Sequence record: PZ154895.1
Source of the DNA: a phage
Reading direction: 5' to 3' (one strand)
Length of the DNA stretch: 64,000 bases
The notes under the pieces were generated by a model. It saw only the letters and a program-made list of their open reading frames with translations, was not told the origin of the DNA and did not search any database. Numbering within the stretch: the first letter of the stretch is position 1; each line of letters begins with the position of its first letter. Below, in pieces: positions 37,072 through 40,861 of this stretch. The position numbers and the translations under genes are program-made.

Positions 37072-37545
37072 ATGTTATTGACTGGCAAATTATACAAAGA
37101 AGAAAAACAGAAATTTTATGATGCACAAAACGGTAAATGCTTAATTTGCCAACGAGAACTAAATCCTGATGTTCAAGCTAATCATCTTGACCATGACCAT
37201 GAATTAAATGGACCGAAAGCTGGAAAGGTACGTGGATTGCTCTGTAATCTCTGCAATGCTGCAGAAGGTCAAATGAAGCATAAATTTAATCGTTCTGGCT
37301 TAAAGGGACAAGGTGTTGATTATCTTGAATGGTTAGAAAATTTACTTACTTATTTAAAATCCGATTACACCCAAAATAATATTCACCCTAACTTCGTTGG
37401 AGATAAATCAAAGGAATTTTCTCGTTTAGGAAAAGAGGAAATGATGGCTGAGATGCTTCAAAGAGGATTTGAATATAATGAATCTGACACCAAAACACAA
37501 TTAATAGCTTCATTTAAGAAGCAGCTTAGAAAGAGTTTAAAATGA
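37072..37545 (+). CDS. 49: endonuclease VII (Holliday junction resolvase)
   Basis: 157 aa beginning MLLTGKLYKEEKQKFYDAQNGKCLICQRE; matches T4 gp49 as recalled. Confidence 0.95.
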   Translation: MLLTGKLYKEEKQKFYDAQNGKCLICQRELNPDVQANHLDHDHELNGPKAGKVRGLLCNLCNAAEGQMKHKFNRSGLKGQGVDYLEWLENLLTYLKSDYTQNNIHPNFVGDKSKEFSRLGKEEMMAEMLQRGFEYNESDTKTQLIASFKKQLRKSLK

Positions 37546-39359
37546 CAATTGAAAAAGAAATTGAAGGATTGATTCATAAAACTAATAAAGACCTTTTAAA
37601 CGAGAATGCTAATAAAGATTCTCGTGTTTTTCCAACTCAACGGGACCTTATGGCTGGTATTGTGTCTAAACACATTGCCAAAAATATGGTCCCGTCTTTT
37701 ATTATGAAAGCGCATGAAAGCGGAATTATTCATTTCCATGATATTGATTATTCCCCTGCTCTTCCATTTACTAATTGCTGTTTAGTAGATTTAAAAGGAA
37801 TGCTTGAAAACGGATTTAAGCTCGGCAATGCACAGATTGAAACTCCTAAATCAATCGGCGTTGCTACTGCAATTATGGCACAAATTACTGCACAGGTTGC
37901 TTCCCATCAATACGGTGGAACGACTTTTGCGAATGTAGATAAAGTCCTTTCTCCTTATGTTAAACGCACCTATGCAAAACATATTGAGGATGCAGAAAAA
38001 TGGCAAATCGCTGATGCGTTGAATTATGCCCAATCTAAAACAGAAAAAGACGTATACGATGCATTCCAAGCTTATGAATATGAAGTAAATACTCTCTTTA
38101 GTTCAAACGGACAAACGCCTTTTGTAACAATTACATTTGGTACGGGAACTGACTGGACTGAACGAATGATTCAGAAAGCAATTCTGAAAAATCGTATTAA
38201 AGGTCTTGGTCGTGACGGGATAACTCCTATTTTCCCTAAGCTTGTTATGTTCGTTGAAGAGGGTGTTAATCTTTATAAAGACGATCCGAACTATGATATT
38301 AAGCAGCTTGCTTTAGAGTGTGCAAGCAAAAGAATGTATCCTGACATCATTTCGGCTAAGAACAATAAAGCTATCACCGGTTCATCTATTCCTGTTTCTC
38401 CAATGGGTTGTCGTAGTTTCTTGAGTGTATGGAAAGATTCGACTGGTAATGAAATTCTTGATGGACGTAATAATCTTGGTGTTGTAACACTGAATCTTCC
38501 TCGTATTGCATTAGATTCTTATATTGGAACACAGTTCAATGAACAGAAATTTACTGAATTGTTCAATGAGCGAATGGATTTATGTTTTGAAGCATTGATG
38601 TGTAGAATTAGTTCCTTAAAAGGAGTTAAAGCGACTGTTGCTCCTATTCTTTACCAAGAAGGTGCATTCGGGGTTCGTCTTAAACCTGATGACGATATAA
38701 TTGAGTTATTTAAAAACGGTAGAAGTTCAGTGTCCCTAGGATACATCGGTATTCACGAATTGAATATTCTTGTCGGTCGTGATATTGGACAGGAAATTTT
38801 AACTAAAATGAATGCTCGTCTTAAGCAGTGGACTGAAAGAACTGGTTTTGCTTTTAGCTTGTATTCTACTCCTGCTGAAAACCTGTGCTATCGCTTCTGT
38901 AAACTTGATACCGAAAAATATGGAAGTGTAAAGGATGTTACTGATAAAGGCTGGTACACCAACAGTTTCCACGTTTCAGTAGAAGAAAATATTACTCCGT
39001 TTGAAAAGATTTCTCGAGAAGCCCCATATCATTTCATTGCGACAGGTGGTCACATTTCTTATGTTGAACTTCCTGATATGAAAAATAACCTAAAAGGTCT
39101 TGAGGCTGTATGGGATTATGCTGCACAACATTTAGATTATTTTGGTGTTAACATGCCGGTAGATAAATGTTTTACGTGTGGAAGTACCCATGAAATGACT
39201 CCTACTGAAAACGGATTTGTTTGTTCTATTTGTGGAGAAACTGATCCTAAAAAGATGAACACAATAAGAAGAACTTGTGGCTATTTGGGAAATCCGAATG
39301 AACGCGGATTTAATCTTGGCAAAAATAAAGAAATCATGCATAGGGTTAAACACCAATGA
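37542..39359 (+). CDS. nrdD: anaerobic ribonucleoside-triphosphate reductase NrdD, uninterrupted
   Basis: 605 aa; C-terminal glycyl radical region RRTCGYLG and Cys cluster CFTCGS...CSICG. Confidence 0.95.
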   Translation: MTIEKEIEGLIHKTNKDLLNENANKDSRVFPTQRDLMAGIVSKHIAKNMVPSFIMKAHESGIIHFHDIDYSPALPFTNCCLVDLKGMLENGFKLGNAQIETPKSIGVATAIMAQITAQVASHQYGGTTFANVDKVLSPYVKRTYAKHIEDAEKWQIADALNYAQSKTEKDVYDAFQAYEYEVNTLFSSNGQTPFVTITFGTGTDWTERMIQKAILKNRIKGLGRDGITPIFPKLVMFVEEGVNLYKDDPNYDIKQLALECASKRMYPDIISAKNNKAITGSSIPVSPMGCRSFLSVWKDSTGNEILDGRNNLGVVTLNLPRIALDSYIGTQFNEQKFTELFNERMDLCFEALMCRISSLKGVKATVAPILYQEGAFGVRLKPDDDIIELFKNGRSSVSLGYIGIHELNILVGRDIGQEILTKMNARLKQWTERTGFAFSLYSTPAENLCYRFCKLDTEKYGSVKDVTDKGWYTNSFHVSVEENITPFEKISREAPYHFIATGGHISYVELPDMKNNLKGLEAVWDYAAQHLDYFGVNMPVDKCFTCGSTHEMTPTENGFVCSICGETDPKKMNTIRRTCGYLGNPNERGFNLGKNKEIMHRVKHQ

Positions 39360-39826
39360 ATTACGACAGATTTTATCCCTGCGATTTTGTGAATGGCCCT
39401 GGATGCAGGGTCGTTCTTTTCGTTACGGGGTGTTTGCATAAATGTGAAGGGTGTTATAATAAATCAACATGGAATGCTAGAAATGGCGTTCCATTCACTG
39501 GTGAAACACTAGAACAATTAATTGAATGTTTGAATAATGATTATATAGAAGGATTAACTATAACTGGAGGAGACCCTCTTTATCCTGATAACCGGGATGC
39601 TGTTCATTGCATTGTTCAAACAGTAAAAAATCTTTATCCAAATAAAAGCATTTGGTTGTGGACAGGGTATAAGTTTGAAGATATTAAACAACTAGAAATG
39701 CTTAAATATGTTGATGTTATTATTGATGGGAAGTATGAGAAAAATCTTCCGACCAAAAAGCTGTGGCGAGGATCAGATAATCAGCGACTTTGGTCAAATA
39801 CCGATGGGGTGTGGAAACATGATTAA
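39356..39826 (+). CDS. nrdG: anaerobic RNR activating protein NrdG (radical SAM)
   Basis: 156 aa; CxxxCxxC-type motif CLHKCEGC; ATGA-coupled to nrdD. Confidence 0.9.
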   Translation: MNYDRFYPCDFVNGPGCRVVLFVTGCLHKCEGCYNKSTWNARNGVPFTGETLEQLIECLNNDYIEGLTITGGDPLYPDNRDAVHCIVQTVKNLYPNKSIWLWTGYKFEDIKQLEMLKYVDVIIDGKYEKNLPTKKLWRGSDNQRLWSNTDGVWKHD

Positions 39827-39916
39827 ATTGAATTATATTATGGACACTATAAATGATATGATTTTTCATTTTGGTCCAGAATTTTATTCGCAATATAGTT
39901 TAGTGCTTATCAATGC

Positions 39917-40156
39917 TTGGTTAATCAATTAAGGGTAAATATGTATAAATTTCGTAAAGGTTTAGCTGATTTTCTTACAACTGTAACATTCTTTTTGTTT
40001 ATGGCAGTTGGTGCTATTTTTCTTATTCCTTTTATTGTTATATTTTTCGTGATTAGTTTGATTTATCCAGAAAAAGGCTTATCTTCTAGCGAGTTCAATG
40101 AGCGTCTGGATAAAATTACTAACAAACTGAATTCTGTTCTTGACAAAAAGGCTTAA
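39917..40156 (+). CDS. small membrane protein
   Basis: 79 aa with one long hydrophobic helix. Confidence 0.45.
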   Translation: MVNQLRVNMYKFRKGLADFLTTVTFFLFMAVGAIFLIPFIVIFFVISLIYPEKGLSSSEFNERLDKITNKLNSVLDKKA

Positions 40157-40158
40157 TT

Positions 40159-40470
40159 ATGATTAGTTTTGAGCGGTACGTGGTAGAGAGTTGGAAGGGT
40201 TTTGATATGTTCGGTAATGACTATTATTTCTATGAATGTAGTCTAAATCCTAGTTTTTGGGCTGGACGAGAACGAGAACTCGAAGAAATTAATAACCGTG
40301 CTGAATTGTTAGGTGAATTACCTACGGTGTATTTTACCTTTGACGCATCTGGATTTGTTATCCAGGTTTATTTTCCTGAAGAAAATTCTGGCGATGATTC
40401 TGTTAACCCGCCATACTGGGCTTATCAAGGAATTATTTCTCGTGGAACAAAACTCGAACTTAAAGAATAA
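40159..40470 (+). CDS. hypothetical protein
   Basis: 103 aa. Confidence 0.45.
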   Translation: MISFERYVVESWKGFDMFGNDYYFYECSLNPSFWAGRERELEEINNRAELLGELPTVYFTFDASGFVIQVYFPEENSGDDSVNPPYWAYQGIISRGTKLELKE

Positions 40471-40765
40471 GATTGAAGTCTATGGAATTCCAGATGAAGT
40501 AGGTCGTTGTCCTGGATGTCAATCAGTTACAAAACTTCTAAAGGAGCTCAATGCTCCTTTTACTTTCTATAAAGTTCTTACAAATAATGGTAAGATTGAG
40601 TATGATCGTCCACTAATTGTATCTCTTGCTAAACGAGCTGGATTCACATCTCTTAACATTCGTTATCCAGTCATTTTCATTAATGATTCTAGACAAAAGA
40701 ACATTAAACACTTCAAAGAAACTCTCATTTCACTTGGATATGATAGAGATATCATAGAAGACTAA
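40394..40765 (+). CDS. glutaredoxin/NrdH-like redoxin; start codon uncertain (ATG 40394 or GTG 40442)
   Basis: thioredoxin-fold signature KIEVYGIPDEVGRCPGC; reading frame overlaps upstream ORF end. Confidence 0.55.
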   Translation: MILLTRHTGLIKELFLVEQNSNLKNKIEVYGIPDEVGRCPGCQSVTKLLKELNAPFTFYKVLTNNGKIEYDRPLIVSLAKRAGFTSLNIRYPVIFINDSRQKNIKHFKETLISLGYDRDIIED

Positions 40766-40767
40766 GA

Positions 40768-40790
40768 CGGGCCCTCTGGGCCTTTCTTTC
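40768..40790 (+). terminator. rho-independent terminator
   Basis: ggccc-tct-gggcc followed by TTTCTTT. Confidence 0.55.
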
Positions 40791-40861
40791 TCACATTCTG
40801 TATATTACCATTCTAACTATCATTCACTTCTTATCATTCCCTAAAATAATTTCACAAAGTT

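Follow-up and report, generated by a model that had tools for sequence, protein, structure and literature searches.

The stretch of DNA analysed here, which we call the window, comprises 64,000 nucleotides (sequence record PZ154895.1) from a Tequatrovirus (T4-like) phage, and the segment of interest carries the gene order nrdD-nrdG-55.8-like-103-aa ORF-nrdH (Table 1). The question that this locus raises is where translation of nrdH begins. The glutaredoxin core of the gene product, KIEVYGIPDEVGRCPGC, is encoded from 40469 onward in frame 2, overlapping by 2 nt the TAA of the upstream ORF, which is read in another frame, and it runs to a TAA of its own at 40763-40765. Two potential start codons are in frame with the core: a GTG at 40442, 9 codons before it, and an ATG at 40394, 25 codons before it. 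A first-pass annotation made from the letters alone had reported this layout, and direct reading confirmed its coordinates. The same annotation described the gene as being without an obvious start codon, which was overstated, since the GTG is the start given in the T4 reference annotation and in those of relatives. Positions 40100-40800 (701 nt) were matched in 636 phage records, with at least 80% of the segment covered in 420.

Table 1. Features of the nrdD-nrdH segment, in window coordinates.
Feature	Position	Strand	Basis and remarks
nrdD	37542-39359		ORF list
nrdG	39356-39826		ORF list
55.8-like small membrane protein gene, 71 aa	39941-40156	+	ORF list; PHROG phrog_1930, E=2.3e-35; T4 gene 55.8 homolog
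103-aa ORF, phrog_2749	40159-40470	+	Frame 1; ATG start, TAA stop at 40468-40470
Shine-Dalgarno AAGGA of nrdH	40427-40431	+	Sequence; SD scan; conservation; ribosome-binding site in Ge15 record
nrdH CDS, 107 aa	40442-40765	+	Frame 2; GTG start, TAA stop; annotation of T4 and relatives
Dual-coding overlap, 29 nt (3' end of 103-aa ORF, frame 1; 5' end of nrdH, frame 2)	40442-40470	+	ORF coordinates
CPGC active-site motif of the glutaredoxin-like protein	40508-40519	+	Translation; both Cys invariant in a 13-sequence alignment
Intrinsic-terminator-like hairpin, GGGCCC-tct-GGGCCT plus T-rich tail, directly 3' of nrdH	40769-40783	+	Terminator scan

We propose that nrdH encodes a stand-alone 107-aa glutaredoxin-like protein that starts at GTG 40442, is served by the Shine-Dalgarno (SD) sequence at 40427-40431 and overlaps the preceding gene by 29 nt, and we put the probability of this reading at about 0.9. 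Direct reading and an SD scan of the window sequence, cAAGGAAttatttctcGTG, both place AAGGA before the GTG with a 10-nt spacer, correcting the first-pass entry that had listed this codon as having no SD. The motif is embedded in Gln-Gly codons of the 103-aa ORF. A spacer of 10 nt lies toward the upper end of the range of lengths that function well in E. coli. The equivalent AGGA is annotated as the nrdH ribosome-binding site in the GenBank record of phage Ge15, and independent annotators have placed the nrdH start at the same GTG in P922, Ge15, Lv5cm, EC.W14-2, SA79RD, HY126 and ATK48. What we describe is an ordinary start of an overlapping gene, already known and already annotated in T4 and in hundreds of its relatives. 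The suggestion of non-canonical initiation survives only in the trivial sense that the codon is not ATG, for GTG is a standard alternative start in bacteria and phages and here it has an SD.

The T4 reference annotation starts nrdH (NP_049686, T4p072; formerly ‘uncharacterized 11.8 kDa protein in Gp55-nrdG intergenic region’) at a GTG that has TAAGGA ahead of it, reading ...AAGGAATagttGTGaaacaaaatAAGATTGAAGTC, that is, V-KQN-KIEVYG. This GTG aligns with window position 40442 (T4, AAGGAATagttGTGaaaCAAAA; window, AAGGAATtatttctcGTGgaaCAAAA), and the SD, the GTG and the next codons of the window, which reads AAGGAATtatttctcGTGgaacaaaactcgaacttaaagaatAAGATTGAAGTC, align with those of T4. The window has 4 additional nt in the spacer (10 nt versus 6 nt in T4) and 15 additional nt (5 codons) after the start, and 3 residues (KQN) separate start and core in T4 versus 8 in the window. 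The 98 residues of the core are 100% identical between the window and both T4 and T2, and in T4 as in the window nrdH comes after nrdD-nrdG-55.8 and is followed by the same terminator. T4 and T2 differ from the window in being without the 103-aa ORF; nrdH there stands directly after 55.8, and the SD and GTG are kept. Core identity, synteny (nrdD-nrdG-55.8-...-nrdH-55.6) and a GTG with an AAGGA-type SD place the window gene in the T4 nrdH orthologous group, and on these sequence comparisons its product is the T4 NrdH ortholog and a member of the glutaredoxin superfamily. The T4/T2 layout looks like a remnant from which the 103-aa ORF has been lost while the ribosome-binding site and start of nrdH were retained, a direction of change suggested by the presence of the 103-aa ORF in several other genera. 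Searchable literature yielded no direct evidence on the N-terminus or translation start of T4 NrdH, from either N-terminal sequencing or ribosome profiling.

For about 30 loci spanning 13 genera we inspected the junction and recorded all in-frame starts with their SDs (Table 2). An IMG/VR search with the NrdH core gave 9 loci, mostly near-identical, and the diversity was taken from GenBank phage records. The pairing of SD and GTG is kept in Tequatrovirus, Mosigvirus, Gaprivervirus, Dhakavirus and Kanagawavirus. Upstream of the core, the nrdH frame stays open for 8 codons in Gaprivervirus RZ and 7 in T4/T2, which leaves 2-3 open codons before the GTG; as the GTG is the sole start codon in this open stretch, it is the only possible start in these phages.

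Table 2. Start region of nrdH in T4-like phages. Codons are counted from the start codon, which is included, to the core, taken as (K)IE(I/V)YG.
Phages	SD	Spacer	Start codon	Codons to core
Window-type Tequatrovirus, Mosigvirus	AAGGA	10 nt	GTG	9
Gaprivervirus RZ, Dhakavirus	AAGGAG	9 nt	GTG	6
Kanagawavirus (Kosakonia 305)	AAGGTG	9 nt	GTG	6
Karamvirus PG7	GAGGT	8 nt	ATG at homologous codon	6
T4/T2-type	TAAGGA	6 nt	GTG	4

The more distant phages JD18, EK29, STML-198, KLB10, Berthold and RB16 have an ATG 1-3 codons before (K)IEIYG. Among the more distant T4-like phages the nrdH start always overlaps or abuts whichever gene is upstream, the overlaps ranging from 4 to 41 nt. A short N-terminus and an overlapping start are, judging by these genomes, the norm for the nrdH family, and tight packing of nrdH against its upstream neighbor is normal for T4-like phages. 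Alignment of the proteins gave the same picture of a variable N-terminal extension, of 0-9 residues, in front of a well-conserved domain. The comparison with T4 and its relatives that had been recommended at first pass thus upheld an ordinary start that is conserved within an overlap, though the codon concerned is GTG 40442 and not ATG 40394.

Between the window and Mosigvirus UKE1, positions 40426-40467 are invariant, and a single difference falls within the 44 nt from the SD to the upstream stop (40427-40470), as against a divergence of 9% over the remainder of the 103-aa ORF and 20% over that of nrdH. The low divergence of this stretch fits a double constraint and is supportive rather than decisive, since, among the invariant runs in the 825 nt compared, this one of 42 nt ranks only second in length and is modest evidence on its own. 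Conservation of AAGGA could also partly reflect a conserved Tyr-Gln-Gly motif of the upstream protein; against this, T4 and PG7 have different upstream genes, yet an SD is present there too. Taken at the level of sequence, the comparisons establish where the SD and GTG lie and that both are conserved, that no other start is conserved, and that this start is independent of the gene upstream. Their main value is for annotation quality, in that they assign nrdH the start codon GTG 40442 and the SD 40427-40431.

From this arrangement we infer that ribosomes initiate at GTG 40442. The SD would direct ordinary initiation there and yield a 107-aa NrdH with the predicted N-terminus (f)M-EQNSNLKNKIEVYGIPDEVGR, that is, (f)Met-Glu-Gln-Asn-Ser, and residues 1-9 (V/M-EQNSNLKN) would form a short variable extension ahead of the first beta-strand (KIEVYG). 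The SD and the predicted start both lie within the 3′-terminal 44 nt of the upstream 103-aa gene, in a different frame and with the 29-nt overlap. Translational coupling of the two genes is plausible from this anatomy alone, with SD and start inside the upstream ORF, and ribosomes translating the 103-aa ORF may assist by keeping the nrdH start site unfolded. The predicted RNA fold of 40400-40500 around the start was no more stable than shuffled sequence (z=-0.68); the local RNA is thus not unusually structured, and neither strong occlusion of the site nor a strong dependence on upstream translation is indicated. No regulatory hairpin is put forward for the nrdH start. At the other end of the gene, the terminator-like hairpin would close the unit after nrdH, and the SA79RD and ATK48 records annotate a terminator at the equivalent site.

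We next weighed explanations in which nrdH does not have this start. NrdH could be fused to the product of the 103-aa ORF through a programmed +1 frameshift near 40442-40470, or the two could formerly have been one gene, and the first-pass annotation had raised a frameshift or fusion of this kind. A fold search with the AF2 model of the 103-aa protein found a deposit that favors it, from Pectobacterium phage PM2, in which a single 199-aa ORF annotated as ‘glutaredoxin’ comprises an ORF103 homolog (43% identity) and NrdH in one frame (locus L032:11902-12501, minus strand; KF835987 41901-42500; fused frame ...YQGIISSGKKYPKIEIYGIPETVSRCAGC...). The PM2 junction is, however, 1 nt shorter than in all other genera. 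Its distance from GTG to core is 17 nt, in an A7 run, whereas RZ, Dhakavirus, Kosakonia 305 and PG7 have 18 nt and the window has 27 nt. One added A would give PM2 an in-frame GTG (VEKKYP-KIEIYG) and an upstream TAA overlapping the first core codon, as in the window. Only one PM2 sequence, with no independent record, was present in the collections searched, and the ORF103 query found no fused homolog of about 200 aa among 1.84 billion representative proteins, the matches being 88-98 aa long except for one weak match of 269 aa. The PM2 fusion reflects a sequencing error in the homopolymer or else a genuine private 1-nt deletion, and either way it has no bearing on the expression of nrdH in the window.

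The overlap itself also argues against recoding. Its frame-1 codons, ACA AAA CUC GAA CUU AAA GAA UAA, contain no recognised slippery motif, whether +1 or -1, and neither an X XXY YYZ heptamer nor a CUU-stop type site occurs in 40442-40470. The upstream stop is not fixed, lying 6 nt further downstream in Mosigvirus than in the window, and because the T4/T2-type phages keep the same SD and GTG without any 103-aa ORF, neither a fusion nor a frameshift is needed. We therefore regard this explanation as very unlikely, and initiation at GTG 40442 as the preferred reading. HY126 and ATK48, in which only ‘glutaredoxin’ is annotated under the ORF103 match, were also considered as fusions and rejected; ORF103 is merely unannotated there, and nrdH is called from the usual GTG.

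There is likewise only a slim chance that a non-canonical codon at the core itself (e.g., ATT 40472) serves as the start of a protein beginning (M)IEVYG. The idea draws on JD18, EK29, KLB10, RB16 and Berthold, which have an ATG 1-2 codons before IEIYG where the window has AAG ATT, but such a start would have no suitably spaced SD, the window offering AAAGAAT and RZ, Dhakavirus and Kosakonia 305 offering nothing, and the conserved canonical SD and GTG stand just upstream.

Initiation at ATG 40394 would give a 123-aa protein and a 77-nt overlap with the upstream gene. This codon is in frame and occurs in the window and in several close relatives, but the SD scan detected no SD upstream of it, where a weak one had been noted at first pass, and the codon is AGG in Mosigvirus and absent from loci L005 and L012. 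In RZ and T4/T2, stop codons close the nrdH frame at this distance. The differences between the window and Mosigvirus at 40407, 40410, 40413, 40416 and 40425 all fall at position 3 in the upstream frame and at position 2 in the nrdH frame, and substitutions between 40394 and 40441 change the nrdH-frame reading from TRHT to ILLI. Since the differences at 40407-40425 occupy third positions of the upstream frame, they indicate that only the upstream gene, and not the nrdH frame, is constrained by coding there. On these comparisons a start at ATG 40394 is effectively refuted.

Finally, a sequencing or assembly indel near 40440-40470, which the first-pass annotation had wanted checked and for which nothing speaks beyond the change of frame between the two ORFs, has next to no probability and is ruled out as the source of this layout by the recurrence of the junction (40415-40500, 86 nt): 419 phage records match at least 80% of its length and 239 reach 99% identity or more, hundreds of independent genomes have it in identical form, and in several Mosigvirus genomes it is identical base for base.

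With the start at GTG 40442 as our preferred reading, we turned to the gene in which it is embedded. The 103-aa ORF, whose upstream neighbor is the 55.8-like gene, was assigned to phrog_2749 at E=1e-48 in a PHROG search. Homologs were found by tblastn in 527 phage records; they occur in many T4-like genera, with those of Mosig-, Gapriver-, Dhaka- and Kanagawavirus at the same position, and T4/T2 are without one. A word-indexed protein search with ORF103 gave only 4 clusters, and one with the PM2 fusion protein came back empty and carries no weight. The AF2 model of the protein has a pLDDT of 81.6 with a low-confidence C-terminal tail (residues 93-103), and no solved-structure match was found. 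As this tail is what the stretch bearing the nrdH SD and start encodes, the model suggests that the overlap costs the upstream protein little.

Whether the 103-aa protein is also a functional partner of NrdH, with coupled expression, is doubtful. The idea is allowed by the fact that the ORF adjoins and overlaps nrdH in at least six T4-like genera, by its unconstrained C-terminal tail, which carries the nrdH ribosome-binding site and start, and by the PM2 deposit that joins both in one 199-aa protein; if real, the PM2 fusion would be a ‘Rosetta-stone’ fusion hinting at shared function. Separately, a variant of the 103-aa protein from a Logan assembly cluster (P0002, 101 aa) ends in NYFSWNKTQT, a C-terminus read in the third frame of the overlap, implying a 1-nt indel between the nrdH SD and GTG in that assembly, with which the SD spacing would shift by one.

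Several database records differ from the picture above. In JS10 (locus L019:934-1200), the nrdH call begins at an internal ATG (+33) that lies 11 codons inside the core, so that the first beta-strand would be lost, and in UKE1 (locus L016:775-1197) it begins at an upstream ATG (-126) and takes in most of the overlapping ORF. The two GenBank starts conflict with the conserved GTG. Citrobacter phage PhiZZ6 (NC_054900; locus L015:901-1170) carries a 24-nt in-frame deletion in nrdH that removes IPDEVGRCP, including the first active-site Cys (KIEVYG-CGCQSV). The gene is unannotated in RefSeq, and from its sequence it is probably inactivated.

The segment upstream held further small differences among these phages. 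A 37-aa ORF (MIKLNYIMDTINDMIFHFGPEFYSQYSLVLINAWLIN) at 39819-39932 of the window overlaps the end of nrdG and occupies the interval up to 55.8. The records of P922, PhiZZ6 and HY126 annotate it, and small ORFs of similar size are annotated at its place in JD18, PG7 and dhabil, the likeness being one of position and size; the T4 equivalent has a different, shorter C-terminus and is unannotated. The window nrdD is a single uninterrupted 605-aa ORF with a 4-nt overlap with nrdG (37542-39826), whereas T4 nrdD is interrupted by the I-TevII intron and separated from nrdG by the mobC homing endonuclease gene, and the window phage is without both here.

As to the protein itself, its 98-aa core matched Pfam Glutaredoxin PF00462 at 24.1 bits, above the gathering cut-off of 22.9 (E=4.2e-5), and PHROG phrog_22, ‘thioredoxin domain’, at E=5e-16. 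A CxxC follows the first beta-strand, as in the glutaredoxin superfamily; both cysteines of this CPGC motif are invariant in 13 homologs from 12 genera, and the motif aligns with CVYC of T4 NrdC. The single-sequence AF2 model of NrdH reached a pLDDT of 48.5, too low for judging the thioredoxin fold. The nearest solved structure by sequence is the T4 glutaredoxin/thioredoxin NrdC (PDB 1AAZ, 1ABA; E=5e-4 to 8e-4), in an alignment that sets NrdH EVYG (residue 12) on NrdC KVYG (residue 3) and spans the CxxC site. Similarity to NrdC is low: NrdH has CPGC in place of CVYC and 107 aa in place of 87, with an extra N-terminal extension and a C-terminal helix.

Bacterial NrdH-redoxin, which reduces class Ib ribonucleotide reductase, shares with the phage protein its small size, the CxxC site, membership in the glutaredoxin superfamily, the name nrdH and a gene location close to those for ribonucleotide reductase. 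The NrdH-redoxin family has a C-V/M-Q-C active site and a WSGFRP motif. The phage protein has CPGC at its active site and no WSGFRP-like motif in its 107-aa translation, and no NCBIfam NrdH model matched it at E<=0.1, the only match being TIGR02196 (YruB family), whose 16.1 bits fall short of the 88.55 cut-off. Its gene neighbors are the class III genes nrdD and nrdG rather than nrdI-nrdE-nrdF. Given the lack of an NCBIfam NrdH match, the CPGC site and the class III nrdDG neighbors, phage NrdH is not a bona fide class Ib NrdH-redoxin, and the gene name is historical. In its layout, nrdH is akin to the coupled overlapping gene pairs of T4-like phages and bacterial operons, in which the SD and start of the downstream gene likewise lie inside the 3′ end of the upstream gene, though at 29 nt its overlap exceeds those of the common ATGA or TAATG kind.
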